A program made the translations under genes and the position numbers. From the NCBI GenBank assembly GCA_016212295.1, contig JACRGO010000237.1:215-64214 (forward strand): 64,000 bases of DNA. The letters are read 5' to 3'. The notes beneath the pieces were generated by a model, which searched no databases, was not told where the DNA came from, and was given only the letters and a program-made list of their open reading frames with translations. Within the stretch, counting starts at the first letter, position 1, and each line of letters opens with the position of its first letter. Below are positions 2,742 through 40,599 of this stretch, in pieces. This stretch comes from Nitrospinota bacterium. GTDB taxonomy: Bacteria > Nitrospinota > Nitrospinia > JACRGO01.

Positions 2742-3749
2742 CTATGGACATTCCTTGCAAATATCCGGACAAAGATTGTTTTTAAAGGAATCCATGAAAC
2801 TCTTAAATAATTCTCCCCTTTTGATTTCGTCGAAGGGGTTTTCAAAAAGGTTTCCGAAATTGAACACTGTTGGGTCCATCCTCATGCAGCAAGGGGTGAC
2901 GAAGCCGTCGTACGTGATGAATATGCCCTTGCCGGGCCACCAGCATTCCCGGAACCTGGGGCTGGATCCGCTGAAACTGAATTCAAGCCCGTTCTTGCCG
3001 CAGATTGATTTTAATTGATCTCGCAGACGGATTTCCAATTTATCGTCCCTCAAAGGCGCTTGGACGGATTGAATGCGCTTCCTGATCTTCCGGTAATCCT
3101 CATTTATGCTTGCGGATTTATAATCGGGATTATACTGGACTGCCGCTGAAAACCGCATTTTATCCATGCCTAACTCCCTGGCGAAAGGCGGTATGTACGC
3201 CAGGGTATCTATATTTTCCTTTGAAATAACGGTTTGAAAGGACAGGGTAACGGAAAGGTTCCCGGCCCTTTTAATTTCCACGGCCATTTTTATGTTTTTC
3301 ACTATTTTTTCAAAATCCGCCCCTCTCCTGAGCCGCTGAAACAGGCTCTTTTCATTGGCGTCGAAAGAGATGACGAGTTCGTCAATGCCGCCCAAGAGTT
3401 TTTCCAGGTCAATCTTGTGAAGGTTCATGCCGTTGGTGCAGGTCCTTGCCCTTATGCCTTCCTCTTTAAGATACAAGGCCATGCCGGCTATTTCCGGGTT
3501 GAGCAAGGACTCGCCCAGGCCAATGAGCGAAACGTCGGTCAAAAAACGGTTGCCTTCGATTAATTTCCTCAAATTGGCCGGCGTGAGATGGCCTCTCCTT
3601 TGGGAGGCCAGCCCCTCGTTGTTGCAACTCCGGCATTTAAGATTGCAGAGCGTGGTGGGCTCAATGTGGGCATGGTAAGGGTATGCGCCTTCCTCTTGGT
3701 TGCTGTTCTGGGTTTTATATTCAGGCATTTTGTTTCGCTTAAGGATCAA
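2742..3749 (-). CDS. radical SAM enzyme with a C-terminal SPASM domain
   Basis: 335 aa. It has the CNLKCRSC (Cx3Cx2C) radical SAM cluster motif near the N-terminus and a Cys-rich SPASM-like C-terminus (TPCCM...CPDICKECP). Confidence 0.8.
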   Translation of the reverse strand: MILKRNKMPEYKTQNSNQEEGAYPYHAHIEPTTLCNLKCRSCNNEGLASQRRGHLTPANLRKLIEGNRFLTDVSLIGLGESLLNPEIAGMALYLKEEGIRARTCTNGMNLHKIDLEKLLGGIDELVISFDANEKSLFQRLRRGADFEKIVKNIKMAVEIKRAGNLSVTLSFQTVISKENIDTLAYIPPFARELGMDKMRFSAAVQYNPDYKSASINEDYRKIRKRIQSVQAPLRDDKLEIRLRDQLKSICGKNGLEFSFSGSSPRFRECWWPGKGIFITYDGFVTPCCMRMDPTVFNFGNLFENPFDEIKRGELFKSFMDSFKNNLCPDICKECP

Positions 3750-3850
3750 ATACTAAAAATTTTTTACCATGAAAATCAGTTTTTATTTTTTCTACATGGA
3801 TTTTTGTAATTTTCATCAGCAGGGGTGACAAATTATATATGTCATGGCGG

Positions 3851-4348
3851 TTAATTTTGTTTGCTGCCATGTCGCGCTATCTGGAGAATGCCGAGTAAAA
3901 TCATATTGGCCGAGGCAATGGCGACAGCGGCGAAAACCGCCAATGGAATGGAGGCAAACCGCCAAAGCGCCCTTTCCAGGATTTTTTTCAGCGGCAAGGA
4001 AATGACCTCCCCATTCTTATTGCACATAACAATTTGTCTTTTCCTGAAACGCAAGGCAAGGAGCAAGACGTTTTCATATCCGGCCCCGGACATATTGGAA
4101 ACCGGGACCACTACCAACGGGTAACTGTTCCTGGGAAAATCGCCAATGGCAAAGGGAGAAAAATCGCTGGCTGAGGGGTAGGTGATTATTGAATTGACGC
4201 CGCTCATTTGTTTCACGCTTTCCACGGAATGGGGATGGGCCAGGACGTCTATTCTAGCGCCTGGATACAGGGACGAGACCCTCCGGATCACCAGGGCCAG
4301 ATGCTGTATGGAAGTGGAGCGGATGATTAGGATGTTCATATCACCCAT
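3851..4348 (-). CDS. hypothetical protein, possibly a glycosyltransferase-associated domain (GT9-like N-terminus)
   Basis: 165 aa. The 'MNILIIRSTSIQHLALV' start resembles the N-terminal Rossmann half of heptosyltransferase-like GT-B enzymes, but the protein is only about half length. It overlaps the GT2 gene by 8 nt. Confidence 0.3.
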   Translation of the reverse strand: MGDMNILIIRSTSIQHLALVIRRVSSLYPGARIDVLAHPHSVESVKQMSGVNSIITYPSASDFSPFAIGDFPRNSYPLVVVPVSNMSGAGYENVLLLALRFRKRQIVMCNKNGEVISLPLKKILERALWRFASIPLAVFAAVAIASANMILLGILQIARHGSKQN

Positions 4349-5369
4349 AACTCATAAAAACCCATTTAACAGGAAGCCGGATTTTATCCAGGACCGTGCC
4401 GGCCACCACAACCCTGTTTCTGAAAATCATGGGAAGTTTCACAAAGGCGTCAAGGATGGCCTTGAGATAGATCGTTGTTCCCTGAGACAGGGAAAAAATC
4501 GCGGCATGGTAAAAAAAAGAAAACAAGATGGGCGCCATCCTGGAAGCCGGGAAGTACCGCCAAATGATCCAAAGCATGTTCCTCGTATAAAAATACGCGG
4601 CCCTGGAGGAGGTCCTTCCGGTTGGAGAGGCTTTATGGTAGGCAAATATATCCGGGAAGTGCTTTATGCGATAACCAGAGTTCCATATACGAAAGGAGTG
4701 GTCGAATTCGTTCAAATAGAGGAACAGGGGAGAGAACAGGGCCCCCGCCTTTTTCAGGCAATCCCTTCTGATCCCAACTCCGGCCCCATTGTAGCTTCCT
4801 GTTTCAGTGCCGCCTGAAGGATTAAATACTTGGCTGCCAGTTGCCGGTTGCCCGGCGCCGGTTGCCAGTGGTCGATTTTCAGGTTTTTCCCCTGGCGCTT
4901 GAGACTGGTGGTTGGGAACCTTTTCCAACCCCGCGTTTCGCACATCAAAAGCCACGGCCCCCAGGCCGGGTTGAGCTTGAAAAACCCTTACCATTCTTCC
5001 GATGGCCCAAGGGTCAGGATAGGAATCACTGTCCAGGAAAACCACGAATTCCCCTGAGGCCGATTCAAGGCCGTGGTTATACCCGCCGATCCCGATGTTT
5101 TCCTTTAGATAAATGTATTGCACGTCCGGGTGCGTTTCGCGAACTACTTTGTCCGTGCCATCTTCCGAGGCGTTATCCACAAGGATGATCTCCACTTCCT
5201 TGTAATCGGAACGCTTGATTTTTCCTATGGTCTCCAATGTGTCATCCTTGCGGTTCCAGGTGAGGATGATAACACTGACAAGATTGTTTTTATGCATATT
5301 CTTTCTATAGCGCGGCCATGCGCGCTCCACGAAGCGATTGAAAAATTCGCGTGGAAAACGCAAATTCAT
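4341..5369 (-). CDS. family 2 glycosyltransferase
   Basis: 342 aa. The GT-A signature 'VSVIILTWNR...DNASEDGT...VFLDSD' includes a DxD motif. Confidence 0.8.
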   Translation of the reverse strand: MNLRFPREFFNRFVERAWPRYRKNMHKNNLVSVIILTWNRKDDTLETIGKIKRSDYKEVEIILVDNASEDGTDKVVRETHPDVQYIYLKENIGIGGYNHGLESASGEFVVFLDSDSYPDPWAIGRMVRVFQAQPGLGAVAFDVRNAGLEKVPNHQSQAPGEKPENRPLATGAGQPATGSQVFNPSGGTETGSYNGAGVGIRRDCLKKAGALFSPLFLYLNEFDHSFRIWNSGYRIKHFPDIFAYHKASPTGRTSSRAAYFYTRNMLWIIWRYFPASRMAPILFSFFYHAAIFSLSQGTTIYLKAILDAFVKLPMIFRNRVVVAGTVLDKIRLPVKWVFMSYG

Positions 5370-5487
5370 TAACTAATAAATAAAACGTTGCTAAAGAAGC
5401 AAAGTTTCATGGGCTGGTAGTGAGGGGGCAGGGGACAGTTGCCAAAATCAATTTATGATTGAGAATTGGGAAGTTGCTGGAGACTGC

Positions 5488-5940
5488 TCACGCGACCTTT
5501 TGCTTAAGAAGGGTTACTTCCCTGAAAAGTTCGATATAACGGTTTTCAAGGGACCTGAATTGCTCCATATCCGGTTTGTTCTGGTAAAGCCCTCTCAGTT
5601 CCCGTATTTCGGCAAGGATATTGTTTATCTGCGATTCAATTGAGTCGAATCTTTTCATATTAAAATTGAAGTGGTCATCAAAGCGCGTGTTCATGTCCTT
5701 TCGCATATCCTCGAAGCGCGAGTTCATATCTGAGCGCATGTCCTCGAAACGCTTGTTGACGTCCTCGAAACGCGAGTTCATATCTGAGCGCATGTCCTCG
5801 AAACGCTTGTTGACGTCCTCGAAACGCTTGTCGATTCCGTCAAGGCGGGCCTCAACCACGGATATTTTTTCTTTTATAATGTCCAGTTCTGGAATGACCA
5901 CGGACCTTATCGCTTCTATAACTGCTTCCTTGATATCCAT
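5488..5940 (-). CDS. coiled-coil protein with internal tandem repeat (DUF1640-like paralog)
   Basis: 150 aa. Repeated 'NKRFEDMRSDMNSRFEDV' units are encoded by a perfect 60-bp tandem duplication at about 5708-5827. The protein shares the 'IDKRFEDVNKRxxDxRSxMNxRF' block with ORF 60362..60835. Confidence 0.55.
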   Translation of the reverse strand: MDIKEAVIEAIRSVVIPELDIIKEKISVVEARLDGIDKRFEDVNKRFEDMRSDMNSRFEDVNKRFEDMRSDMNSRFEDMRKDMNTRFDDHFNFNMKRFDSIESQINNILAEIRELRGLYQNKPDMEQFRSLENRYIELFREVTLLKQKVA

Positions 5941-6268
5941 GCTAGAAATTTATCAAAAAGCGGGCTTAAATGCAAGGTAATAGTTTACGGGGGCAGGGGA
6001 GTAGGCCAAAATTAGCCATTGGCCATTGGTTAAAGGCGAAGGGTGAAGGGATTTAAAATTCCAAATCTAAAATATCGTAACCGTTCACGGTTCAGGGTTC
6101 CAGGTTTTAGAAAACCCTGTATCCACGCTTATCTCCAAAACCCGCTTACCCATGCGGATTTTCATTGTGGAGCGCCCTAAAAAAACCTTGCAACATTGCC
6201 GTGTTTGACGGTTTTTCAACTCTGAACCTATAGCCTTGAACCCGTGAACGGATACAAAATATCTTTTG

Positions 6269-7564
6269 TCAGATTTTTCCCGCGTTGATCCTCTCCGCCG
6301 CAGCCTTGCCGCTTAAAAAGGCGTGGTCAAGGTTGAAGTAATTCCACTCGCCGTACCTTCCTATCGGAATAATATTATGTTCCTCCAGGAATTTCCTGAT
6401 CCCCTCCACGCAAGCGGTCCGGTTCTGGTCGAATACAATGTACCCGTACTCGATGTTCAAGTGGTCAGTTGCCAGGACCTCGCTTTCGCTTTTGATAAGC
6501 CCTGTCTTGACAATGTCGTTTATGGTCCGGCTGATTATGTTCTCCGCGTCAATCGGCTTGTGCTGGGAATGGGAAATTTCAGCGGTCAGGGAGGTAGTTC
6601 CCTCCGGGCAAACATAAGGAGACGCGTTGCTCTGTATGAACAGGCGTTGGAAGATGAATTTCTCTTCGGGATAATAGATCCAATGTTTGTCAGTGAGATT
6701 CTCCCGGTCGATGCCTATATTCACGCAATGGACTGATGTATGCCGCAGCAAATCCGCCATTTTTACGATCTCTTTCGGCGCGTCGATTATCTTCATCACC
6801 AAGTCCGGCAAGGGGATGGATGACAGCAGGAACTTGTATCCCATACTTTGGCCTGAGCTTAGCGTAATGCCTCGGTTCCTTACGTCGATTTCCCACAGCT
6901 CGGTTTTAAGGCAAAGGTCGGTATTTTTCAAACGTGGAAGGAAGGCGTCCATGAGCGACTGGCAGCCGCCGCGCAAGGGATAGCCGAATTGGGAGTTGGG
7001 GCCGTAACGGTCCTCAATGGAAGCCTTTGAGCCGCCGATAACGTCCTCAAGGCTGGGGACTTTCACCCTGTCTTCAATCCAGGAAAAATCCAAATGCTCC
7101 AGCGGCCTGGCCCATACCTTTTTGTTGTAAGGTCTCATGAAATGCTTTGCTATCCCGGCGCCGAAGTTTGCCTCTATCCATTCATCGAAGTTTTGGGGCG
7201 CGGCATTCCCCTTGTTTTCCAGCGCCGTTTTCAACCCCTGGATACATTCGTCTATGGTCTTTTGCGGCAGCCCGAACAGATTGCTCTGGAAGGGATATCT
7301 GGTGTAAACATCCTGGGAAAATATCCATGAGTTCCTTTCCTGGAAATGGTGGTTGCCAGGCAAAAGGTCCGCGAAGAGATTATTCGCGTACATATCCTTT
7401 GAAAAAAAGATATGCCCTGCATGGTCGAAGATAAAAAAGTCGACCTCCCTGGACCTCCCCAGTCCGCCGACGTTTTTTTCCTTTTCTATGAGAATACTGT
7501 TTTCCTTGAGGTGATAGGCGGCGCTAAGTCCGGCAGGACCGGCCCCTATTATTACAGTGCGCAT
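6269..7564 (-). CDS. FAD/NAD(P)-binding oxidoreductase (amine-oxidase or UDP-galactopyranose-mutase-like fold)
   Basis: 431 aa. It has an N-terminal 'VIIGAGPAGLSAA' dinucleotide-binding motif and a 'PYNKKVWARP' segment reminiscent of UGM-like flavoenzymes. Its 5' end overlaps the Maf-like gene. Confidence 0.65.
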   Translation of the reverse strand: MRTVIIGAGPAGLSAAYHLKENSILIEKEKNVGGLGRSREVDFFIFDHAGHIFFSKDMYANNLFADLLPGNHHFQERNSWIFSQDVYTRYPFQSNLFGLPQKTIDECIQGLKTALENKGNAAPQNFDEWIEANFGAGIAKHFMRPYNKKVWARPLEHLDFSWIEDRVKVPSLEDVIGGSKASIEDRYGPNSQFGYPLRGGCQSLMDAFLPRLKNTDLCLKTELWEIDVRNRGITLSSGQSMGYKFLLSSIPLPDLVMKIIDAPKEIVKMADLLRHTSVHCVNIGIDRENLTDKHWIYYPEEKFIFQRLFIQSNASPYVCPEGTTSLTAEISHSQHKPIDAENIISRTINDIVKTGLIKSESEVLATDHLNIEYGYIVFDQNRTACVEGIRKFLEEHNIIPIGRYGEWNYFNLDHAFLSGKAAAERINAGKI

Positions 7565-8940
7565 AATTCGCTCATGGAAAAGATGTCCTCCGCCATCCTG
7601 ATGGGAAGCCCCATGGAGTGGAAGTTGTAAAACTTTGTTTTTGAGTTGGCCAGGATTATTTGCTCAATATAGTTTCTGTAGCTGAAAAGATTCTGGTGCG
7701 CCGCGGCCTTGCCGCCGAATCTGTCTTTCGCCAAAACCGGTTTTTGAGATTGCATTTGATTTTGATGAAAATCATCCAAGGTAGGTCCTCCGATGGAATT
7801 TTGCCATGTCTTTCCCAAGGCGTTTCCGGACGCATGAAAGCGTTTCATTGAAAAACAGCAGTCCTGTCCGAAGAGGATGATGGGATTGAACCCAAAGCGC
7901 GCCATGAGGTCGAGTCCGACGCACGCCACTGATCCCCCTTCCTGGGTTTCGCCTTTTTGTGAAAATAATTCGGCGTCCCCGCCTAAATGTTTTTTTTGGG
8001 CGGAGGCTATAAAGACCATTTTTTTCCCCTTGTAATTCCTAACCACCTCAGGATTGGAGGCAGGGGTGAAAAGGAGAACGGAATCCTGTCCGAAGCATCC
8101 CTGAAAATGCGCCAAACTATGGCTTTGAGGGTCTATGCTTGCCACGAAGTCCGGGACAATGCCCGTCTCCACTAAAATGGGGAAAGCCGTGTCTGTCGCG
8201 AAAATGCCGGCTTTGCCCCTGAGTAATTCGAGGCAGGGCAGGGCAATGTCCAGTGACGGGCCCGCGCTTGCCAATATGCCTGTTTTCCCCGTAAACCTTC
8301 CGTAAAGCCCGGCCACTCCATCTGACTCCAAGGCCGTAGCGCGATTTTTTTGAAAATTTTTTTCTTCCAGGGCGGAAAATTCAACGCTTGTCCTTTTTTC
8401 CATCCGGACCAATTCGAAAATATTTTCAAAATCCTTGAACTCTCCAGGAATGGAGGAAAGAGAAGGGGGATGGATGAGAAGCTTGCCGTTTTCCTCCCGC
8501 AGGACCTTCAAGGCGAGTTCAAATCCTTTTAGCGCGGCTTCCCTGCTTGTCCCTAATAACATGGAAACGCGGGCATCTGAAAAAATTTTTTCCAGGTCCC
8601 TGCAAGAGCAAGCGGCTTCGAGTATTTCGCCGTTGAACTCCATTACCTGGAGTCTGCCGGATGGGCCGGTCCTGTCCAGGATGGCTTCCACATGATAGCC
8701 AAATCCAAACCCGTATATAAGGATGGAATCCCCTTCGGAAATTTGGGATTTTTCAGCGAATTGTCTCGCTTCCCCAACGGGGTCAAAGGCTGAATGGATT
8801 AATCTGTTCTTGTAGCGCAAGGTCCAATCGCCGGACTTGGTCTTGATGGTCGTGCTGTTTTCCGTTGACCCGCGCCTCAAAAATCCCTTGGCCCCAGGCG
8901 CTTTTTTTTCCAATGATTCTATGTTACCGGCTATTGGCAT
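7552..8940 (-). CDS. Maf/DUF115 (MptE-like) domain protein, putative flagellin or pilin glycosyl/nonulosonate transferase
   Basis: 462 aa. The N-terminal 'LIHSAFDPVGEARQFAE' motif is typical of motility-accessory-factor (Maf) proteins, followed by a central DUF115-like core. Confidence 0.55.
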   Translation of the reverse strand: MPIAGNIESLEKKAPGAKGFLRRGSTENSTTIKTKSGDWTLRYKNRLIHSAFDPVGEARQFAEKSQISEGDSILIYGFGFGYHVEAILDRTGPSGRLQVMEFNGEILEAACSCRDLEKIFSDARVSMLLGTSREAALKGFELALKVLREENGKLLIHPPSLSSIPGEFKDFENIFELVRMEKRTSVEFSALEEKNFQKNRATALESDGVAGLYGRFTGKTGILASAGPSLDIALPCLELLRGKAGIFATDTAFPILVETGIVPDFVASIDPQSHSLAHFQGCFGQDSVLLFTPASNPEVVRNYKGKKMVFIASAQKKHLGGDAELFSQKGETQEGGSVACVGLDLMARFGFNPIILFGQDCCFSMKRFHASGNALGKTWQNSIGGPTLDDFHQNQMQSQKPVLAKDRFGGKAAAHQNLFSYRNYIEQIILANSKTKFYNFHSMGLPIRMAEDIFSMSELCAL

Positions 8941-9301
8941 CTTTACGGAAAAAAATAAAATCGACTTGACAGGAAAGAAATTTGGTATAATACTTTTGTT
9001 ACCTTAACATTTTGGTAAAAAAGAATCAAAATTTGTAGCCGTTCACGGAAATTCCGGGGTTTTGCGTGAATTGAATAATTTCACATCCCCCTGGCCCCCT
9101 TTGCTAAGGGGGAATTAAAAGGGGATGTGCCCATTTACTAAGAGGGAGTTGGCAAAAAACGCTTGCGTCGCATAATTCCCCCCTATCAAGGGGGGGATTA
9201 AGGGGGGTTAACCAACGTAAGTAATGGAGTTAATTTCAATATATGGCGGCGCCCCGTGAACAGTTGCTAAAATTCACAATAGCCCTTTCAGGAGAAAAAT
9301 C

Positions 9302-11323
9302 ATGCATGGAAATAAAAACATGGCTCTGGCTAAAGTCGAAAGAATTCCAAAAAGCCAGGTAGAAAGACGCGGTAAAAAACTTTCCCTTGGTTTCCGCATA
9401 GGTCTTTCCATAGGAATATTCCTGGTCCTGTTTATCATCAATTTCATTTCAGCTTTTTGGGTGATCAAGGAGCAAAAGGACGATGGCGTTATCATCAACC
9501 TTGCCGGAAGGCAGAGGATGCTGACCCAAAAATACGTCAAGGAACTTGCCATTGATCTCATCCCGGAACAAGTGCGGCAGGCGGTCCTTAAATCGGCCAG
9601 GATCGCCACGAGACAGATCCAAGAGGACCGCGCGCTTTACACTAAATCCGTTGTTGGGAAAATGAAAAAAGAGCTGCCGGGATTTTCCGCCAGCCAGAAT
9701 TACCACGAAATTTCAGGCGCGGCGCCCCTTCCCGCGACTTTCGTCCGGGAAGTTTCAGAGGCCATACACGGCTCCGGCCTTTATAGTTACGATCTTTTGA
9801 GCAAATGGAATATCAATCCGAAAAAGGGGCTTCGGGACCCCTTTGAGCAGGAAGCCTTCGAGGAACTCCTCAGGACCGGGACCGGTTCATTCTATCGTTT
9901 CATGGATCACGAGGGCCGGTATGTTTTGCGTTTCGCGACCCCTGACAAGGCTTCGTCCCAGGCCTGCACTGATTGCCATAACAACAGCCCTGAAAGCGCC
10001 AAAAGGGATTTTAAATCAGGTGATCTGATGGGCATTCTCGTGGTCACCATACCGGTAAGCGATGACATCCGCCTTGCCAAGGCCCTTTTCAGCCAAGGAG
10101 CGGATGAGGGCGGCGTGGAGCAGGCCGGCTCCAGCGGCGGCACGGCCAAGGTTTTTGAAATGACCCTTGGCGCCTTGATAAATGGAGGGAAGGCCCCTTT
10201 GGACTTGGCGATGACACTGTTCTCGGACCTGCCGTCCCCGCCCCGCAAGGAGATTGAGGACGCCTTGAAAAATGTTGACAAACTCTGGAAGCAGATGGTT
10301 TTGGACGCGGGAGAATTGCGGCGGGCGGAGGTCAACACTCTGCCCTATCTTAAGGCGTTTCAATCCATCCGTGAGGTCAATTTAAAGGCATTGGATGAGA
10401 TGAACCTCGCCGTGGACGCCTTGCAAAAAGAATCCGACCGGAAGGTTTTTCTCCTGAAAACCACCCAGACCACGCTTCTGGTCCTCTCGGTCCTCGTTTT
10501 CCTGTTCATTCTTTCTTATGTCTTCAGGGGAATAGTGAAGCCTTTAAATAATATTGTCAATTCCCTCAGGGAGAGCATGGAAAACGTTTCCGACGCCTCC
10601 CTGGATATCAGCCAGAACAGCCAGGAAACGGCCGAAGGGGCCTCAAGGCAGGCCGCTGCCTTGCAAGAGAGTTCCGCTTCCCTTGAAGAGATTGCCGCCA
10701 TGGCGAAGGAGAATTCCGGCAACGCCGGAAAGGCGGACAAGTTGGCCGCTGAGACAATGGAGGCCGCAAGGGACGGCGAGGGGGCCATGAACAGAATGAT
10801 CGAGGCCATCCAGGCGGTCCGTGAGTCAGGCGGGAAGACATCGAAAATAATTAATGTCATCAATGAAATCGCCTTTCAGACCAATCTTTTGGCCTTGAAT
10901 GCCGCGGTGGAGGCAGCCAGGGCCGGGGAAGCCGGAAAGGGATTCGCCGTGGTGGCGGAAGAGGTCAGGAACCTGGCCTCCAGATGCGCTGCCGCGGCAA
11001 GGGAGACAAGCCAAACCGTGGAGGACTCGCTTAAAAAGACCGAGACAGGCGCGCTGATTTCGGCGGAGGTGGCAAAGGCATTGGGAGAGATCAGCGGCCA
11101 CGCCAAAAAAGTGAATGAATTTGTGGGCACGATCGCCGAGGCTTCCAAGGAGCAGGCGTCCGGGATAAGCGATATAAACAAAGCGGTTTCCGAGATGGAC
11201 CAAGTTACACAGCAAGCCGCGGCTGGTTCAGAGAGATTGGCCCAGTCAGCCCTTGACCTGAAAAACCAGGCAAGCATCCTGGCCGGGGCCATTGCGGAAT
11301 TGGACCATCTTGTTCATGGATAG
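9302..11323 (+). CDS. methyl-accepting chemotaxis protein with periplasmic heme-c (CxxCH) sensor domain
   Basis: 673 aa. It has an N-terminal TM helix, a PilJ/NIT-like '[13 protein letters not shown]' segment, a 'CTDCH' c-type heme-binding motif in the periplasmic part, a second TM helix, a HAMP domain and the MCP signalling domain ('[32 protein letters not shown]'). Confidence 0.85.
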
Positions 11324-16711: not shown

Positions 16712-18280
<1,569 letters not shown>

Positions 18281-18394
18281 ACTTTACTGTTATTAACAGT
18301 CTCATAATAGTAGCGACATAACACACCCCGGCCTTCGGCCACCCCTCTCAAGAGGGGAATTTTTATGTATGTTCTATTTTGAGACCGTTAATAA

Positions 18395-18730
18395 TCATTC
18401 ATAAAACCTTTTAACTATATCGAACTGCTTTTTCAAATGATTGGAAAGATTGTCCCTCATCTCCTTGAGAAAGCAATATTCTTCCTCTATTTCCAGCTTG
18501 ATAGCGGCAATGGCCTCTTCTATGGACGGGCCTTCCGCTGTTATGTCAGTGTCCCTGAGTTTTGCCAGGATGTCACCGTTGGCGAAGATGGAAATGGATA
18601 TGTTCGCCTTTTCCCTGGGGAACGAAACCTCCCTGTCGAATTCCAGGACAGGGATGAAATTTTCCTCTTCGCAAAAGGAGCAACCGTGGGCCGATTCTTG
18701 CGATAGTTTTCCTCCCGGATACTTGCCCAT
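18395..18730 (-). CDS. hypothetical protein embedded in the atp operon between atpG and atpD
   Basis: 111 aa. Its start overlaps the atpG stop (coupled). It has 'HGCSFCEEENF' and a C-terminal segment 'ITAEGPSIEEAIAAIKLEIEEEY' faintly reminiscent of UPF0150/HicB-like folds. Confidence 0.4.
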   Translation of the reverse strand: MGKYPGGKLSQESAHGCSFCEEENFIPVLEFDREVSFPREKANISISIFANGDILAKLRDTDITAEGPSIEEAIAAIKLEIEEEYCFLKEMRDNLSNHLKKQFDIVKRFYE

Positions 18731-18732
18731 TC

Positions 18733-19629
18733 TTATCCCGCCTTGATCGCCTCTGACCCTGAGACGATCTCCAGTATTTCCTTTGTGATGCTCGCCTGCC
18801 TGGCCTTGTTATAGCTGAGGGTCAGGGTGTGGATCACTTCCTTGGCGTTGTCCGAGGCGCTCTTCATGGCGACGAGCCTTGCCGCGTGCTCCCCCGCCTG
18901 CGTCTGGGCCAGGGCGTTATATACTTGCGATTCCAGGTATTTCGGGATCAACTCCGCCATCAACTCCTCAGGCTCCGGCTCAAAGAGATAATCGCCGGCC
19001 GCCTTTTTGTCCTTCTCTGCCTTGCGTTGCTGTTGCTCCGCCTCTTCCTCCGATGGCTTTGTGAAGGGGATGAGGGTAAGCGACGTCGGCCGCTGCACCA
19101 TCGGAGAGACGAACTGTGAGTAAATGAGGTCCACCTGGTCGTACTCCCCCTTTTCAAATCCTTCCGAGAGGTCCTTCACAAGCTCTATAATCAGTGAAAG
19201 CTCCAGTTCCCTGTCCGACGGCATATAGGACTTTTTGATTTTGTATCCCCTGCGGGAGAAATAATCCCTGGCCTTCTTCCCCACGCAAAAGAGCATATAT
19301 TCCTTACTGGCGTGCCTTAGCACGTTGTCCTCGGCCTTTCGCAGGATGTTCCCGTTGAAGGCCCCGCAAAGGCCCTTGTTAGAGGTGAGCACGGCCAGGG
19401 CGATTTTTTTCACCGGCCTGTCCTTGAGAAGGGGATGCTGGATATTGCCCGCCGCCTTGCCAAGGCTGTGGACCATTGAGTTTATCTTCTCCGCGTAAGG
19501 CCGGGCGTGTTGAGCCGCAGACTGGGAGCGGCGCAATTTAGCGCCTGCCACCATCTCCATGGTGCGGGTGATCTGCTGTATGTTTTTTACGCCCTTGATT
19601 CTTTTTTTTATGTCGCGAGGCGAAGCCAT
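18733..19629 (-). CDS. atpG: F1Fo ATP synthase gamma subunit
   Basis: 298 aa. It has the conserved N-terminal 'IKKRIKGVKNIQQITRTMEMVAGAKLRR' and the C-terminal helix. Confidence 0.9.
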   Translation of the reverse strand: MASPRDIKKRIKGVKNIQQITRTMEMVAGAKLRRSQSAAQHARPYAEKINSMVHSLGKAAGNIQHPLLKDRPVKKIALAVLTSNKGLCGAFNGNILRKAEDNVLRHASKEYMLFCVGKKARDYFSRRGYKIKKSYMPSDRELELSLIIELVKDLSEGFEKGEYDQVDLIYSQFVSPMVQRPTSLTLIPFTKPSEEEAEQQQRKAEKDKKAAGDYLFEPEPEELMAELIPKYLESQVYNALAQTQAGEHAARLVAMKSASDNAKEVIHTLTLSYNKARQASITKEILEIVSGSEAIKAG

Positions 19630-19726
19630 GTTTTTTTTAAATTTAAATGTTTTGTATTAGCGCAGTCCCACCGCAAAGACGCAAAGAACGCAAAGGAAAT
19701 TTGCGGCGAGCTATTACAATGTTTTT

Positions 19727-21365
<1,639 letters not shown>

Positions 21366-21378
21366 TTTCTTTATGATA

Positions 21379-21915
21379 TTACTTGAGCATGCATTCCTTT
21401 GCTTTTTTAAGGCGCCCGACCACGCTTGCGTCGATTATCTTGGAGCCCATTGTGATCACCAATCCGCCGATGATGTCCGGGTTGATGGACTGGTTTATAA
21501 CAACCTGCTTGCCGGAAATGGCGGAGAGTTTTTTCTTCAAGCCTTCCACCTGCTGGGGAGAAAGGAAAAAGACCGTCTCCACCTCCGCCTTGACTATATT
21601 TTTGTGGCCGTCCGCCAGCCGGGAAAACTCCTCGTGAAGATAAGGCAAAATGTGCTCCCTCCGCTTGTCAACCAGGAGAGACATAAAATTCCTTAGCGCC
21701 GGGTCCAACGATCCGCTGAATATTTTTTCAATGAGCGCCTTCTTCTTGTCCTTTGCGAGCAAGGGATTATTCAAGGTTTGGACAAAGGAAGGGTTGTCCT
21801 TGCAAACCTTATCAACGTTAGCGAGCTGGCCTTCCACCTTGTCCAGGAGTTTTTGCTCAAGGACGGTCTCCATGAATGCCTTGGCGTATCTGCCTAGTAT
21901 GACGCGGTCTATCAA
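21379..21915 (-). CDS. atpH: F1Fo ATP synthase delta subunit
   Basis: 178 aa OSCP-like subunit. Its position between atpF and atpA fits, and it overlaps atpF by 4 nt. Confidence 0.8.
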   Translation of the reverse strand: MIDRVILGRYAKAFMETVLEQKLLDKVEGQLANVDKVCKDNPSFVQTLNNPLLAKDKKKALIEKIFSGSLDPALRNFMSLLVDKRREHILPYLHEEFSRLADGHKNIVKAEVETVFFLSPQQVEGLKKKLSAISGKQVVINQSINPDIIGGLVITMGSKIIDASVVGRLKKAKECMLK

Positions 21916-22412
21916 ACCATTTCTCCCAGATCCTTGATAACGCCATCCGCGATTTTCCTCGCGGCGTTTTCATCAAGCGCGTGGCGCAATATCTTAGTGG
22001 CGGTCACCACGGAAAGGGAAACCACCTGTTCTCGGATTTCCGACATTACTTTCTTTTTCTCGTGTAAAATGTCCTGGGCCGCCTTTTTGCGGATTTCCTC
22101 CCCTTGCTGTTTGGCTTCCTGAAGTATGTCGTCGCGGAAGGACTTTGCTTCCTTTATGGCCTCCTGAAGCTTCTGGTTAGCCGCGGCTTCGGCATCGGAC
22201 AGTTTTTTCGCGTAGTCCTTCTTCATGTTCTCCAGTTCGGATTTCAGCTTTTCCCCCTTTTCCAGGTCGCCTTTGATCCGGCTGCTCCGCTCGTCCAGCA
22301 CCTCCAGAACAGGCGGCAAGGCGAATTTATAAAGGACCAAAAGGAGAATCCCAAAGGATACGATGGACCAAAATACCAAGGGACTCAATAATTGGAGATC
22401 AAACTGCGGCAT
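21912..22412 (-). CDS. atpF: F1Fo ATP synthase subunit b
   Basis: 166 aa. An N-terminal TM helix is followed by a long charged helix ('KKLSDAEAAANQKLQEAIKEAK'). Confidence 0.8.
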   Translation of the reverse strand: MPQFDLQLLSPLVFWSIVSFGILLLVLYKFALPPVLEVLDERSSRIKGDLEKGEKLKSELENMKKDYAKKLSDAEAAANQKLQEAIKEAKSFRDDILQEAKQQGEEIRKKAAQDILHEKKKVMSEIREQVVSLSVVTATKILRHALDENAARKIADGVIKDLGEMV

Positions 22413-22434
22413 TTTTTTACTCCTAAAAAATTTT

Positions 22435-22716
22435 TTAAAAACCGTTTTTATCCGGCCTGTCCTCGCCGGAGTTGTTATTATTAAACTCCTGAAACGCCCT
22501 GTAAATATTTAAAAATCCCGCCGCGCCTCCGAAGATCAATCCCAACAGCATCAGCCAGGGGGAGGAGCCTAAATACTCGTCCAGCAGATATCCGCCGTAA
22601 GTCCCGATAAGAACGGAAATAACCAATTCCGAACCGATTCTTGACGCGAACCCAAGACCCGATCCAATGTTTTTTGGCTCGGTCCCCACGTTTTTCTCCA
22701 GGACTTTTTGCTTCAA
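22435..22716 (-). CDS. AtpZ/AtpI-family small membrane protein
   Basis: 93 aa with two TM helices and a GxxxG-rich pattern ('LIGTYGGYLLD...LGLIFGGAAGF'). It lies upstream of atpF. Confidence 0.55.
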   Translation of the reverse strand: MKQKVLEKNVGTEPKNIGSGLGFASRIGSELVISVLIGTYGGYLLDEYLGSSPWLMLLGLIFGGAAGFLNIYRAFQEFNNNNSGEDRPDKNGF

Positions 22717-32181: not shown

Positions 32182-33605
32182 TCAGCTTGTCTCGCAAGCT
32201 GCACTGCTGAAAGGATTGTTTGTGAAACAAGAAATTAATTTCCCTTGCGTCTTCCGCAGTTTTTCCATCTCCGTTTTGACTTCCGCGAAATTGGGATTAA
32301 GCCTCAGCGCTTTTTTAAAACAATCCACAGCCTCGTGGCTTTCTTGTTTCAGCGTATAAACCATTCCCATGTTATAGTGGACCACCGCGTCGTCAGGATA
32401 GATTTTCAGGGCTTTCCTGTAATTCCTGATTGCGTCATCATACTTTTTTTGTTTTCTAAGGGAGATGGCGACACGATTAAGGGTGTGGAAAAGGTCCTCT
32501 TGGGTACCGCCGCTTCCTTTTCTGTTTCCGTCATTACGTGGTAAAGGTCCGCAAGGGCGATAAGGGCATTGATGAATTTGCCGCCCATCATTTTCAGCGC
32601 CAGCATAAAATACTCTTCCGCCTTCTGGTAATTTTTTTTGAGCTGGTACGCCCGGCCTTCTCCCACAAGCCGCCGAGGCGCGTAGGTGTTCATTGCGTCC
32701 GTTTTGAATTCATACTTCTTCCTTAGATTCAGAACGGTTTCCTTCAAAAGATATATGGCCTTTTGAAATCCTCCAGATTCATCAGGATTTGACGCATCAT
32801 GGTTGGATTGGATTTCCCGGACCATTGCCATGGCCTCCTCTCTTTTTGAATCCATTACTTCAATTACTTTTAATTCCCCCTTTAATTCCCCGGCCATCCT
32901 GTCCATTAAAGACAACAATTCCTGGACCCTGGAATATTGAAAAGTCGACAGCGCTATATCCGCGGCCCGGGGATCGTTTTTCCTTTCTAAAATATTTTCT
33001 CCTATGTCGATCAGTTTCTTAAAAGTCGAATCAGTGAGTTTTTCGTTGATATGATCGAGGGCCGCCTCTATCATTTTTGTTATATTTTCGCTGTTTTGAG
33101 ACACCACGCTGGCCTCTATCTTCGCTTCCTTGGCGAGAGCTATGATTTGGCTGTGTCTGTTTTGCTCATCCAGGGTTAAGCCGTCCATATTTGGAAAGTC
33201 AACTACAATGACAGCGCCGCTAAAACGGGGATGCGACCTGAGTTCCTTGACCGTCTCAATGGCGCGAGGGGCATCGGCGAGATCCGTTATGGACAAAAAA
33301 ACAAGACGGCATTGAAGCATCATCTCCTTGGAATCCATTGCTTTTTCTCCCATGAGGTCCGCAATCATATTCCACTCGTCGCCTATCAGGCGCATGGCCT
33401 CGGAATAACTTTTCAGCAGGCAAATATTCTCCACCCCCTGGTCTTTCAGTCCTTTTTTCACCGTGGACCGTCTTGCGCTGCTTCCCGTTATTTCCACGAC
33501 CGCCACATACCCGCTTTGGTTTTTTGAACTATTCCGGCGGTCCAGCAAAAATTCGCCAATATTTTTTATTTTTTTTTGATCCGTTTTTCTTTCAAAGGGG
33601 TTCAT
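32182..33605 (-). CDS. TPR-repeat protein with unknown N-terminal domain, interrupted by a frameshift or stop near 32385-32406
   Basis: ORF 32406..33605 (399 aa) ends in a non-TPR-like tail. The TPR register resumes in ORF 32182..32385 ('VHYNMGMVYTLKQESHEAVDCFKKALRLNP'). Confidence 0.5.
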
Positions 33606-33748: not shown

Positions 33749-36700
33749 CTACAGGAGGGTTTTGTATATCTCTTCGGTTTTTGGAGAGGGGACGTCGCCC
33801 AGTGACGAAAAAAGGATTCGGCGGCATTGCTTATAAAAGGATATCCCCAAGGCTGGATTCCCCGCGCTCCGGCAGCATACCATGATCCTTTGGTAAAATT
33901 CCTCAAGGGCAGGGTCCGTATCCAGTATCCCTCGATAACAGTCAATGGCCTTGTCGAACTCTTCCCCTCGCTCAAGGTAATTTCCCGCCTTGGACGCCAT
34001 GTGGACAAATCTGTTTTTGAGCCTTTCTCTATAGGCGATCAACCATGCCTTTTCACTGTCTCCCGCCAGATACCTGCCTTTATACAGCTCGAAAACCTTT
34101 CGAGCCAGGGAGGACGCGAGTTTTATATCATTACCATCGGAACTAACGCCCTCTTTCCCCTCGCATCTTTTCATGAATGCTTCCATCTCTTCGTGCAGTT
34201 TGCCAAAGGCCCATATATCCACCCAACAATATCTTCTATTAATGGCTATGGCGCCTCCTTGCCGCTGTATAGTTTTATCGTTTCCTATGAGCTTGCGCAG
34301 CCTGTGCAATGCCGCCTCGAAGGACTGGTAAGCCAGGTCGCCGTCGGCATCCGGCCAGAGGACATCGGCCAATTGCTCGAAATTCACATTCGCGCCGCCA
34401 AGGGTGATCAGCGCCTTGAGCAGTTCCAGCGGTTTCTGCTGCACCTTCCCTGAAAACTCAATCGGTTTGCCGTCCTTTATGATCCTGAATCCGCCCAAGG
34501 TATATATCTTTATGGGATAGGGCCAACTTTCGGACGACCTAGTATTCGCAGGGGGCGTTAAGTTCCGCCTCCTGATGAGGCCCAGCACGTACTCCGTTTC
34601 GATGCCTTGTTCAAGGGCCTTGGCGCAGAAAAGTGACATCATCTCCGGGCGCCAACGCGAGAAGTTCACGTAGTTGTGGCGGGCGCCGATGGCGAATGCC
34701 AGACGAAGTTCGCTCACGCCTTGCGCTTCATCTCCCTGTTCAAGGGCAAACCACGCCTTAAAAACATGGCATAGAAACTCAACATGAGTCAGCCCGCGCA
34801 TCAGAGACAAGGCAATAGCCAAATCCTGCTCCGCCTCCTTGTAACGCTTCATGTCGAACAACGTGACGCCGCGCTCGATCCGGCACAATGCCACGGTAAA
34901 GGGACACGCGGTATCCTCGCTGAAACTTACCGCTTGATTGCCATGTTCGATGGAAAGCGTAAAATCGCCTTGATACCAGGCCACCAAGGCTGCCATGTAG
35001 TGATAAAGGCTCCTGTCCAATGTGCGGACGGAATTAAGACGCGCGATTCTGTTCAGGAAATCCTTGGCCGCTGCAAGATCGCCTTGAGAAATTTCGCTAT
35101 AGATGCCCTGGCCGAAAAGGAAGAAATCCAACAGGTGCACGCCCGTTTCCTCGCCAAGGGCCATGCCATGAGCGATGGAGGAAAGACAGGTATTGTGATC
35201 GGCTACAAGCCAGGCATACATGGCTTTTATGCCATACCACCCCTGCATCGCCAGAGGATCCGTGCCGGGTTTTTCGCTTGCCTGGCGCAAGGCGTCCACG
35301 ATGAGCGCGCCCTTCGCGAAATCCCCCATAATATAACGCCAGGTTGTTTCCGAGCGAGATGCGTAGGGAAAAGTCGGCGTCGCCTAGCACGATGCGATTC
35401 AGACGCTCCGCCCACATTGGCAGATCAGGATGAAGGGGTTGCCGCCAAAGCAAGGCGTTGAACATGCCTGACGCCACCCGCGCCTCAATATCGGACGACG
35501 GAAAGGCAGGATGCTTCCGCGCAATGGTTTCCAACTCGTCAATCCACGCGCCCATCGGCCTGAAGTCGTTCCATGCAAAGACAAAAGTGTCCATGACGGC
35601 CGCCCACGCAAGAAACAAACCGGATACATCCTCTTCTTCCTTGAACATCGGGCAGGCCTTTTCGAAATGTCCTCCGGCCTCGACGGGGTTATAGGCCATC
35701 CGGCATATTCCAAGCCAATAAAGGAGCCAGGGGGATGCTTCTTTCAGTTCGCCCGGAATATTTTCTATCCACTCCTCAAGACTCTTGCTTCTGCCCTGCG
35801 ATGCCAACGCTGGAGCAAGGCTTACCGTCAGGCGCATGGCGTTGCCCCAGTCATGGGCATCCATATAAAGGCCAACCGCCTCGTCCATTTGCCCCCTTAT
35901 CTCCATGAGTAAAGCGGCCCTTTGCCGTAGGATGGAGATTTCCAGTCGCGTGAATGTCTCGCGGGAACGGGCCAGCAGGAACTCCCTGAAGAGAGGATGA
36001 TACTGGTATCCGTCCATGTACAATTTGGTGAAATAATTTTTACGGCTCAGGCTTTCCAGGATTTTTCCGGCGGAGTCGATCTCCGTGAGTTTTTCCGCAG
36101 TTTCCGGGTCAATTTTATTTAAAAAGACCGTTTTGAGAAGGACTTCCTGGACCACTGTATCTGTCCTGTCAAAAATCTCGCTGGCGAAATACTCGAATAC
36201 CTCTCGCTGTTTTTTTTTGGGGACAGGCGTCATTTCGCCTGAGGGAGAGCTTTCCATCATCAGCAGGAGCCCGGCCGCCCATCCATCCGTTCGCTCGTGC
36301 AACTTCTTCACGGAGTCGCCGGGCAAGTCCTTCCTCTCTTTTACCTTTAAAAACTCTTTTGACTCCTCCAGGGAGAATTTTATTTCAGCCCACCCCAGGG
36401 AACTGATTTTATTGTTTGCCCGCAGACGCGCGAATTGCGGCGGCGGTTCCTGGCGGCTCAATATGATAACCTTGACCCATTCAGGAATAAGGTCCAGGCC
36501 GCCGCTCATCATCTCCTGAAAAGCAGGACCAGGGACGTCCTGGTAGTTGTCGAGGACTATGGTGAATGATTTTGAATCGCGTTTTTTCGCGGCGCGGGGA
36601 CGGCCTTTGCCCGTGGCAGCCAAATCCGCCGGCAATAGCCTATGGAAAAGTTTTTCAAAATAGCGCCTTGTAAAGGATGGGATGGCCTGGAAATATTCGG

Positions 36701-36989
36701 AGGTCAATAGAGGAAGCGGTTTCTTATATCTTGGCGCGGCCTTTTTGGCGGCCAGTCCCATGTAATAAAAGAAGGTCGCGAGGTCGGAGTCGCCCCCATC
36801 CACCTGATACCAGAGGCATGGCAGCTTTCGGGCGTCCAGATAGTCGGCCACCAAGGTGGTCTTTCCAGAGCCAGGAGAGGCGCTGACCCAGGTAATCGGC
36901 TTTTCTCTTCCTGTGTCCAGCAAGTGGAAAAGTCGTTCCCTCCGGGCAATCCCGGTAAGATTCGGACGGTTTATTTTGGTTGCGGCCAT
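33749..36989 (-). CDS. STAND-type NTPase fused to SARP-like regulator (winged-helix plus BTAD); reading frame broken near 35330-35400
   Basis: The N-terminal ORF (35097..36989) has a Walker A 'SASPGSGKTTL' and a MalT-like NTPase. The C-terminal ORF (33749..35329) has 'YTLGGFRIIKDGKPIEFSGKVQQKPLELLKALI' (an OmpR/SARP-type DNA-binding segment) and a BTAD-like C-terminus. The two ORFs overlap by 233 bp in different frames. Confidence 0.6.
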
Positions 36990-39159: not shown

Positions 39160-40599
39160 ATGAACATCAAAAAACTCACGGACTACAAATGGGAGATCGA
39201 GCAGGACGCGGCCAGGGGAATGCGCGTCCCCGGCATCATTTACGCTGACGATAATCTCATGCGGTTGATAGAGAAGGACAACTCCGCCGGGCAGGTGGCG
39301 AACGGCGCGACCTTGCCGGGAATAGTAAAGGGCTCAATGGCCATGCCGGACATGCACTTCGGTTACGGTCTCCCCATCGGAGGGGTCGTTGCCACGCGCA
39401 TGGAGGACGGCGTCGTGTCGCCCGGCGGCACTGGATACGACATCAATTGCGGTGTCAGGCTCTTGAGGACCAATCTGAATTCGCAAGAGGTGGAAGCCTC
39501 GGCCTTGCTTCTCGCCAATGAACTCTTTCAAAGCATACCAACAGGCGTCGGGTCCAGGGGAGACATACGCCTTTCCGGAAGGGATTACAGAGACGTGCTT
39601 ATTAACGGCGCGAGATGGGCGGTGGAAAGAGGTTACGGCGCGGTCGAGGACATCGGGCATATAGAGGCCCAGGGCCGCATGGAGGGGGCAGACCCCGCCT
39701 CAGTCGGACAAAAGGCAATGGACAGGGGCAAGGACCAGTTGGGCACCCTGGGGTCTGGAAACCATTTCCTGGAAGTGCAGGTGGTGGAGGAAATTTTTTT
39801 TCCAAAGGCGGCGGCCGCCTTTGGACTCTTCCCCGGCCAGGTCACGGTCATGATCCACACCGGCTCCAGGGGATTCGGACACCAGGTCTGCACTGATTAT
39901 TTACAGGAGATGGAGAAGGCCGTCAGGAAGTACGGTATCGAACTCCCGGACCGGCAGCTGGCCTGCGCACCCATCCAATCCCCGGAAGGAAAAAGCTATC
40001 TCTCCGCCATGAGGGCCGCCGCCAATTACGCCTGGGCCAACAGGCAATGCCTGGCCGGACTGACGGAAAGGGCCTTTGAGCGGATTTTACAAATGGGGCC
40101 TGCCGCCCTGGGCATGTCCTGCCTGTACGACGTGGCCCATAATATAGTCAAGATCGAGGAACATATAATCGGCGGAAAAAAGATGAGACTTGCGGTCCAC
40201 CGGAAAGGCGCCACAAGGTCCTTTCCGCCCCATCACCCGGAAGTCCCGGAGTCATGCAAGGAAGTGGGCCAGCCGGTTATCATTCCCGGCGACATGGGAA
40301 GGGCCTCATACGTTCTGGTCGGGACCCAGAAGGCGATGGAGGAAACCTTCGGCAGCACCTGCCACGGCGCCGGGCGCCTCCTGAGCCGGCACGCGGCCAT
40401 CAGGCAGACAAAGGGAAGGGCAATTGAAAGAGAGCTTGGGGACAAGGGCATCATCGTGAGGTCAGCCGGAAGACACACACTGAAGGAAGAGGCCCCTGAA
40501 GCCTACAAAAACGTCACCGAGGTGGTGAACGTCGTGGAAAAGGCCGGGCTCTCCCTCAAGGTCGCGCGGCTGAGGCCGATAATAGTGATAAAGGGATAA
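39160..40599 (+). CDS. rtcB: RNA-splicing ligase RtcB
   Basis: 479 aa with the conserved metal-binding and active-site motifs 'GSGNHFLEVQ', 'HTGSRGFGHQ' and 'CHGAGR'. Confidence 0.9.
   Translation: MNIKKLTDYKWEIEQDAARGMRVPGIIYADDNLMRLIEKDNSAGQVANGATLPGIVKGSMAMPDMHFGYGLPIGGVVATRMEDGVVSPGGTGYDINCGVRLLRTNLNSQEVEASALLLANELFQSIPTGVGSRGDIRLSGRDYRDVLINGARWAVERGYGAVEDIGHIEAQGRMEGADPASVGQKAMDRGKDQLGTLGSGNHFLEVQVVEEIFFPKAAAAFGLFPGQVTVMIHTGSRGFGHQVCTDYLQEMEKAVRKYGIELPDRQLACAPIQSPEGKSYLSAMRAAANYAWANRQCLAGLTERAFERILQMGPAALGMSCLYDVAHNIVKIEEHIIGGKKMRLAVHRKGATRSFPPHHPEVPESCKEVGQPVIIPGDMGRASYVLVGTQKAMEETFGSTCHGAGRLLSRHAAIRQTKGRAIERELGDKGIIVRSAGRHTLKEEAPEAYKNVTEVVNVVEKAGLSLKVARLRPIIVIKG

Follow-up and report, generated by a model that had tools for sequence, protein, structure and literature searches.

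Heme-c chemoreceptors are an already known kind of protein, with Geobacter examples from 2008 and a protein family defined in 2026. The family in question, Tll0287-like or DUF3365, was renamed sCache_heme in a preprint by Deshpande, Xing, Gumerov, Crane and Zhulin (10.64898/2026.02.01.703092). Its members show 99% conservation of a CxxCH motif, and binding of heme c has been shown experimentally (10.64898/2026.02.01.703092). The defining feature is the position of this motif on a short helix inserted between β3 and β4 of the Cache fold (10.64898/2026.02.01.703092). The Geobacter chemoreceptors GSU0582 and GSU0935 (PDB 3B47, 3B42) are counted as sCache_heme members (10.64898/2026.02.01.703092); they bind nitric oxide (NO) and CO, and their spin state switches with the redox state (PMC8396549). 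Here we describe a gene for a methyl-accepting chemotaxis protein (MCP) found in a stretch of 64,000 nucleotides (nt) of Nitrospinota DNA (contig JACRGO010000237.1 of assembly GCA_016212295.1), referred to below as the window. The gene (9302–11323, plus strand; from the list of open reading frames, ORFs) encodes a protein of 673 amino acids (aa) with Pfam matches to MCPsignal, Tll0287-like and PilJ, and it is almost certain that the product is a heme-c Cache chemoreceptor in which the heme module is nested in a PilJ-type bundle.

The second known system of importance is the chemoreceptor McpN (PA2788) of P. aeruginosa. Its ligand-binding domain (McpN-LBD, PDB 6GCV) is a continuous PilJ-type four-helix bundle of ~130 aa without any cofactor. 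In McpN, as in NarX/NarQ, a single nitrate ion is bound at the dimer axis by a motif known as the N-box. McpN does not accept nitrite in place of nitrate, whereas NarX/NarQ take both. The consensus for the N-box was derived by Martin-Mora et al. from the nitrate site of McpN and was proposed as a predictor of nitrate-binding PilJ domains (PMC6381276).

Hydropathy gives two transmembrane (TM) segments in the receptor, TM1 at ~aa 33–55 (9398–9466, plus strand) and TM2 at ~aa 387–408 (10460–10525, plus strand). TM1 follows a K/R-rich cytoplasmic tail (aa 1–32), which has 9 K/R by charge count. As there are two TM segments, a tail of this kind and a C-terminal MCP domain that is necessarily cytoplasmic, aa 56–386 are predicted from hydropathy and the positive-inside rule to lie in the periplasm, outside the cytoplasm as the attachment of heme c requires. 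This part contains the sequence CTDCH (aa 222–226; 9965–9979, plus strand), a predicted heme-c attachment motif with C222, C225 and the putative proximal ligand H226, identified from a motif scan, conservation and an AlphaFold 2 (AF2) model. It is the only CxxCH in the receptor and in the ~60 ORFs of the window that were scanned for the motif. The original prediction had placed a CxxCH in the periplasmic ligand-binding region, and the position between two predicted TM helices bears this out.

Could the motif be a chance occurrence, or one that binds no heme? The Pfam scan of 30 ORFs in the window and the CxxCH scan of ~60 ORFs found no cytochrome c maturation genes, a null that is uninformative when it comes from 64 kb, and heme attachment is here a prediction. 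Against this, given how often Cys and His occur in the window proteins, only 6e-4 CxxCH motifs are expected by chance over the 329 periplasmic residues, and 118 of 120 homologues have kept the motif. It is also present in all 179 nested sensors described below, for which it was a selection criterion. The protein furthermore belongs to a Pfam family with the motif conservation and the experimental heme c mentioned above, and its fold matches that of the solved member 5B82. A chance or heme-free motif is therefore extremely improbable, and the original observation stands.

The Pfam match to Tll0287-like (PF11845, formerly DUF3365) covers aa 89–251 with 68.7 bits against a cut-off of 24.1 (E 9.7e-19) and spans profile positions 2–144 of 144, so the DUF3365 domain named in the original prediction is indeed present. 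The whole inserted module can be placed at aa 89–253 (9566–10060, plus strand), with its N-terminal helix as the distal continuation of the first bundle helix, α1. In the AF2 model CTDCH lies on a helix at aa 220–228 that is flanked by strands at aa 206–216 and 242–253, which matches the defining insertion of sCache_heme. A fold search with the sensor found similarity to 5B82, while the sensor profile search gave no match to 3B42. Like GSU0582 and GSU0935, the protein is an MCP with a periplasmic c-heme sensor of the PAS/Cache-like type. The idea of a redox- or gas-sensing heme-c chemoreceptor of the Geobacter kind is thus supported by membership of the family that includes these proteins. The accompanying hint at a Geobacter or Desulfovibrio lineage has to be given up: a 100% identical protein in NCBI comes from a Nitrospinae metagenome-assembled genome (MAG) and is listed, on a contig of 65.7 kb, as 'MAG: DUF3365 domain-containing protein [Nitrospinae bacterium]', and the closest relatives outside Nitrospinae are from anammox Scalindua.

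Within the sCache_heme family, the stand-alone proteins are assigned redox, not sensory, roles (10.64898/2026.02.01.703092). Tll0287 of Thermosynechococcus (5B82), after which this stand-alone 'Cluster 1' type is named, is soluble and has His/Cys heme ligation, whereas the present receptor is a transmembrane protein with no candidate Cys. Its only periplasmic Cys residues are C222 and C225, which excludes ligation of the Tll0287 type. With no axial Cys and with an MCP output, the receptor does not fall in Cluster 1 and belongs with the signalling-coupled group. It shares with the 'Cluster 2' proteins (P. azotoformans Cache_heme-HAMP; 10.64898/2026.02.01.703092, 10.64898/2026.05.25.727664) a periplasmic Cache-like fold, a CxxCH on a short helix, the lack of an axial Cys, two flanking TM helices and a coupled signalling output. 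It differs from them in that the module lies within an N-box PilJ bundle and does not make up the whole sensor, in the lack of HAMP and in having an MCP output.

The distal side of the heme was investigated through conservation. C222, C225, H226 and R110 are invariant in the 179 nested sensors, and Y113 and T114 are 88–89% conserved; as a guess, R110 and Y113 could lie in the distal heme pocket. Met243 was considered as the distal ligand, since it is found in 116 of 120 close homologues, but its rank as a candidate was lowered when a second clade of nested sensors proved to have Leu at this position (82% Met over all 179). His135, His156 and His203 were rejected as ligands as they are not conserved (44% for H203 in the nested sensors). 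The helix at aa 84–124 has no conserved Met, and M121 is Leu in 114 of 120 homologues. Since no conserved Cys, His or Met is available to ligate the iron from the distal side, the heme probably is five-coordinate or has water in the sixth position, leaving it accessible to small ligands. By analogy, such an open heme would fit the NO-binding relative better than the Met switch of GSU0935. The relative, a signalling-coupled sCache_heme member without an axial Cys, releases NO slowly (dissociation rate constant 6e-4 per s) and forms no stable O2 complex (10.64898/2026.02.01.703092); signalling-coupled members of the family thus act as sensors of NO and not of O2.

These residues bear directly on whether the receptor could be a redox sensor for energy taxis as in Geobacter, where the redox potential would be read via a change in spin state or distal ligand and the N-box would be a structural relic. 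GSU0582 and GSU0935 are in the same domain family (10.64898/2026.02.01.703092) and were proposed to signal via a redox-linked axial Met switch (PMC8396549). M243 is present in the receptor and in most nested sensors, and many of the hosts live at redox interfaces, e.g., Scalindua and Deltaproteobacteria. However, the nested family shares no Met, His or Cys for such a switch, M243 being Leu in a whole clade, and the Geobacter Met60 is found on the N-terminal helices, where the nested family instead conserves R110, Y113 and T114. The high conservation of the N-box residues (≥95%, see below) is also above what would be expected for a relic, and the measured signalling-type relative acts as an NO sensor. 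We regard the redox sensor as an unlikely alternative, though one to be taken seriously.

Oxygen is a further candidate. DcrA of Desulfovibrio vulgaris is likewise a chemoreceptor with a periplasmic c-type heme and reportedly responds both to oxygen and to the redox state (PMC8396549), and the original prediction suggested this analogy. O2 binding or heme oxidation would in that case drive aerotaxis or oxygen avoidance. DcrA has a cytoplasmic PAS domain that the receptor lacks. In addition, the tested sCache_heme proteins form no stable O2 complex and autoxidise, yielding superoxide (10.64898/2026.02.01.703092). Oxygen sensing therefore seems improbable, and by analogy with these relatives NO or the redox state is more likely than O2 to be the signal.

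The heme module is flanked on both sides by parts of a PilJ-type four-helix bundle. The N-terminal half consists of α1 (aa 56–90; 9467–9571, plus strand) and aligns to residues 19–40 of McpN-LBD, and the C-terminal half consists of α2–α4 (aa 277–386; 10130–10459, plus strand) and aligns to residues 71–139. Conserved features of the C-terminal half are FExTLxAL, GG, DLxM and W329. In the intact protein the PilJ family (PF13675) is detected at aa 53–83, covering 31 of 114 profile positions with 32.4 bits against a cut-off of 26.6 (E 1e-7). When aa 91–275 were excised in silico, the match became contiguous over profile positions 1–92 and rose to 44.9 bits. The sensor profile also aligns to McpN-LBD (6GCV) as two pieces, one on either side of the heme module.

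A scan of GTDB genomes identified uninterrupted N-box PilJ chemoreceptors that are homologous to both flanks (loci L016, L017, L018, L022 and L074). The PilJ domains of such proteins are ~145 residues long, and hosts include Ca. Thiodiazotropha, Omnitrophota, Aminicenantia and Nitratidesulfovibrio. Because these uninterrupted domains align to both flanks, the insertion point can be placed between helix 1 and helix 2. The bundle is thus not continuous as in McpN, but holds ~190 residues with the heme module between these two helices.

The AF2 model fits this arrangement. In it a single helix (aa 29–124) takes in TM1, bundle helix α1 and the N-terminal Cache helix without a break, and a short helix together with a disordered linker (aa 254–276; 10061–10129, plus strand) returns the chain from the heme module to the bundle. 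The linker is rich in Gly, Ser and Glu, has a predicted local distance difference test score <50 at aa 267–275 and corresponds to variable, poorly conserved alignment columns. All structure models were of monomers, and a sensor-only model was made for the fold search. Its best structural match is McpN-LBD, and it shares the four-helix-bundle fold of 6GCV, NarX and NarQ. Searching with the whole protein in Foldseek was less useful as the matches were dominated by the signalling domain, and a single-sequence search of the PDB with the sensor gave only spurious weak matches to sialic-acid binding proteins.

The N-box is found on α1 at aa 65–76 (9494–9529, plus strand) as an exact match to the pattern [IVL]-[ND]-x-A-G-x-Q-R-M-L-[ST]-Q (PMC6381276). 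The nitrate-contacting residues G58, R61 and M62 of McpN correspond to G69, R72 and M73 in the receptor. A strict match is seen in 78 of 120 homologues, and most of the others differ at one position. R70, Q71, R72, M73, L74 and Q76 are each ≥95% conserved in the 179 nested sensors, in part by construction of the pattern used to select them. A functional nitrate-type site in the receptor is a tentative proposal, to which we give somewhat less than even odds.

The perfect N-box, together with McpN-LBD as the best structural match, might also mean that the receptor is simply an McpN orthologue for nitrate. The bundle would then be the sole sensor and the heme module would tune or gate it, or be non-sensory and cytochrome-like, in line with the redox roles that the preprint assigns to stand-alone sCache_heme proteins. 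This is hard to reconcile with the position of the heme module on the signalling helix α1 and with the two Cys, the His and R110 being invariant across several output types. The receptor also lacks an axial Cys, which stand-alone proteins of the cytochrome-like group typically have. We consider a nitrate-only receptor quite improbable.

The cytoplasmic kinase-control domain (aa 413–665; 10538–11296, plus strand) gave phmmer matches to 3zx6, 1qu7 and 6s1k (1e-44 to 1e-45), and Pfam MCPsignal (PF00015) matches aa 480–636 (E 1.2e-44). The alignment is gapless over 253 of 253 residues with the Tsr part of 3zx6 (1e-45) and over 249 of 249 with 6s1k. The domain is accordingly predicted to be of the 36-heptad length class, as Tsr and Tar, an assignment made from the gapless alignment. 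The identity to the Tsr cytoplasmic domain is ~46% in the Foldseek alignment, and the conserved sequence of the MCP hairpin tip is present. The description as an otherwise canonical MCP is hence correct for the signalling domain, but it does not hold for the rest of the protein, in which HAMP is lacking and the sensor consists of two nested modules.

Transmembrane MCPs typically have a HAMP domain between TM2 and the signalling domain, but Pfam found none here at E ≤ 0.1. Only ~5 residues separate the end of TM2 (~aa 408) from the start of the Tsr-like alignment (aa 413), and in the AF2 model one unbroken helix runs from aa 347 to aa 540, up to the hairpin tip. HAMP is present in more distant homologues of the receptor. 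McpN also has a HAMP domain. At the other end of the signalling domain, 77 of 120 homologues, including most of those outside the Nitrospinae pair, have an acidic C-terminal tail (...IPMGE..xEHDExFxDF). The ...DF tail may be a CheR/CheB-tethering motif. The receptor and its closest relative do not have it, and their C-terminus is LVHG.

The best explanation overall, to which we assign a probability of roughly 0.55, is a CheA/CheW-coupled chemoreceptor with a heme-c module nested in an N-box PilJ bundle and with nitrogen oxides as the signal. Its function would most likely be chemotaxis to nitrogen oxides, in which the heme would sense NO or the redox state and the N-box possibly nitrate; we infer these ligands from the motifs and from the relatives. 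That NO is the main heme signal is, by analogy, an even call.

The two-pass membrane protein would report to the CheA/CheW pathway from two periplasmic modules placed on one long helix, the membrane-proximal N-box PilJ bundle and the heme module. CTDCH would receive covalent heme c from the cytochrome c maturation system of the host, with H226 as the proximal iron ligand. Binding of NO, or a change in heme redox state or ligation, could then shift α1, the helix on which heme module, N-box and TM1 all meet, with respect to α4/TM2. A displacement of this kind would be comparable to the effect of nitrate in NarQ-type sensors. As there is no HAMP, it would pass directly along α4, TM2 and the signalling helix and so reach the tip that controls the kinase. 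The same α1 would also respond to nitrate at the N-box, which could thereby add to or gate the heme signal, and the receptor may therefore be able to integrate two nitrogen-oxide signals. A more far-reaching version is that PilJ(N-box)::sCache_heme is a dedicated two-input sensor, with nitrate at the bundle and NO at the heme, which steers motility and other outputs of nitrogen-cycle bacteria (anammox Scalindua/Brocadiaceae, Nitrospinae, nitrate-respiring Deltaproteobacteria and Shewanella) along gradients of nitrate and NO. This version is speculative and on present evidence doubtful.

Several observations weigh against a receptor for nitrogen oxides. Position 70 of the N-box, the second 'x' of the pattern, is Arg in the receptor and Ala in McpN, and the N-box Gly is Ala in one sub-clade of Scalindua. 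The N-box may be kept for structure or dimerisation. As the bundle is interrupted and the models are of monomers alone, the geometry of a nitrate site at the dimer axis is putative. The argument for NO sensing comes from a single relative with measurements, the P. azotoformans protein, in which there is no PilJ frame, and loading of heme in the host organism is assumed, with no maturation genes in the part of the window scanned. There is a single methylation-consensus site (aa 452–460), and no che genes accompany the receptor gene in its neighbourhood, which makes it an orphan. The host is labelled 'Nitrospinae', and nitrite oxidation by it would be an assumption.

The nested sensor is found in many other proteins. 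A profile search of 1.84 billion representatives gave 5447 matches at E ≤ 1e-3 and 330 at E ≤ 1e-30, and ~85 of the best 150 matches cover the whole nested sensor. Among the outputs are MCPs, some with HAMP and some without, as well as hybrid histidine kinases, GGDEF-EAL proteins and GAF proteins. As it occurs with several output types, the nested sensor is a portable cassette. Named hosts are Ca. Scalindua, Brocadiaceae, other Planctomycetota, Deltaproteobacteria MAGs and the cultured Shewanella canadensis. That the nearest relatives outside the receptor's own lineage are from Scalindua would fit an exchange of genes between Nitrospina and anammox bacteria of the sea, which has already been proposed for nitrite oxidoreductase (PMC3578206).

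Some relatives show variations on this architecture. In S. canadensis HAW-EB2 (L009, 5803–9180) a chemoreceptor of 1125 aa has the same nested sensor followed by one HAMP and four HAMP_2 domains. A Scalindua/Brocadiaceae sub-clade (P0056, P0058, P0060 and L003, 5914–8496) has proteins of 830–1023 aa with 2–3 tandem, diverged copies of a hairpin-tip segment (IASQTNALALKAG...) of which there is normally one, and it is also the sub-clade in which the N-box Gly is changed to Ala. Repeated hairpin tips in a signalling domain are an unusual chemoreceptor geometry. In three further proteins (P0100, P0108 and P0113) a closely related heme module is found in a different helical sensor, 4HB_MCP_1 (together with HBM in one of them), and not in PilJ. 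Helical bundles thus seem to have taken up the heme module on more than one occasion.

The receptor gene lies alone between minus-strand genes. The sequence shows a ribosome-binding site, AGGAG, 8 nt upstream of the ATG (9290–9294, plus strand). Several promoter-like sites lie in the 360 nt that separate the receptor gene from its divergent upstream neighbour, of which the candidate at 8966–8994 (plus strand) combines TTGACA with an extended -10 element, TGgTATAAT (~8981–8991), as a consensus match from scanning and reading the sequence. No Rfam match was found in this 360-nt region. The 5' untranslated region contains two palindromes of C-runs and G-runs (~9079–9130 and 9173–9207, plus strand; inverted repeats I4–I6 and direct repeat D1) that could form hairpins, i.e., two copies within 9079–9207, e.g., TAATTCCCCCCT...AGGGGGGGATTA. 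The palindrome is not dispersed across the window, with the exception of a TAATTCCCCC pair at 32871–32892.

The genes next upstream, on the opposite strand and pointing away from the receptor gene, form an island of the flagellin-glycosylation type (2742–8940, minus strand), in which Pfam identifies radical SAM/SPASM, GT2, flavin amine-oxidase-like and MptE-like/Maf genes; an extracytoplasmic function (ECF) sigma factor gene lies downstream. A 66%-identical orthologue (GCA_029261755.1, L081) also adjoins amine oxidase and Maf genes. In five loci of relatives no conserved nitrogen-metabolism neighbour was found, and che genes were present in two of them, as cheA-cheW-mcp-cheB-cheR and cheV-cheW-mcp clusters. 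Further along the window are genes for an F-type ATP synthase (16712–22716, minus strand; an alpha/beta-family subunit was confirmed at 16712–18226), the RNA ligase RtcB (39160–40599, Pfam) and a FliK-like hook-length protein of 605 aa (41617–43434, Pfam), which look like ordinary housekeeping and flagellar genes, as well as a FliG_C-like gene. The flagellar genes indicate a motile organism. A role of the receptor in chemotaxis is supported by these genes (Maf, FliK-like and FliG_C-like), by the che clusters around relatives and by the orthologue having kept its Maf neighbour. The N. gracilis genome paper makes no mention of flagella or chemotaxis. Two overlapping minus-strand ORFs at 33749–36989 (33749–35329 with TPR and BTAD domains, and 35097–36989 with no Pfam match) look like one AfsR/MalT-like regulator split by a frameshift or sequencing error.

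In the literature searched, receptors of this kind are known, but the variant with a nested sensor, an N-box and no HAMP has not been described. What is new in relation to this literature is the nested insertion, the direct join of TM2 to the signalling domain without HAMP, and the portable cassette. A full-text search that combined PilJ, Cache, heme c and chemoreceptor found no paper. Neither of the two sCache_heme preprints (10.64898/2026.02.01.703092, 10.64898/2026.05.25.727664) mentions PilJ or nitrate; four-helix bundles are not mentioned in the former and only for HAMP and a kinase domain in the latter. The nested architecture was already visible in precomputed domain annotations.

A cofactor-bearing Cache module has thus been placed in a nitrate-type bundle and reused in at least ~85 clusters of proteins (at 50% identity), where it is joined to chemotaxis, kinase, cyclic di-GMP and GAF outputs. 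Shewanella canadensis offers a tractable cultured organism for studies of the sensor, and since the signalling domain is of Tsr length and ~46% identical to Tsr, the receptor itself may be testable directly in E. coli. No chemoreceptor ligand has been described for anammox bacteria or Nitrospinae in the literature searched, and the receptor is a candidate for nitrogen-oxide chemosensing in marine members of the former and in the latter. Should both sites prove active, one receptor would integrate two related signals, nitrate and NO, in a compact form.

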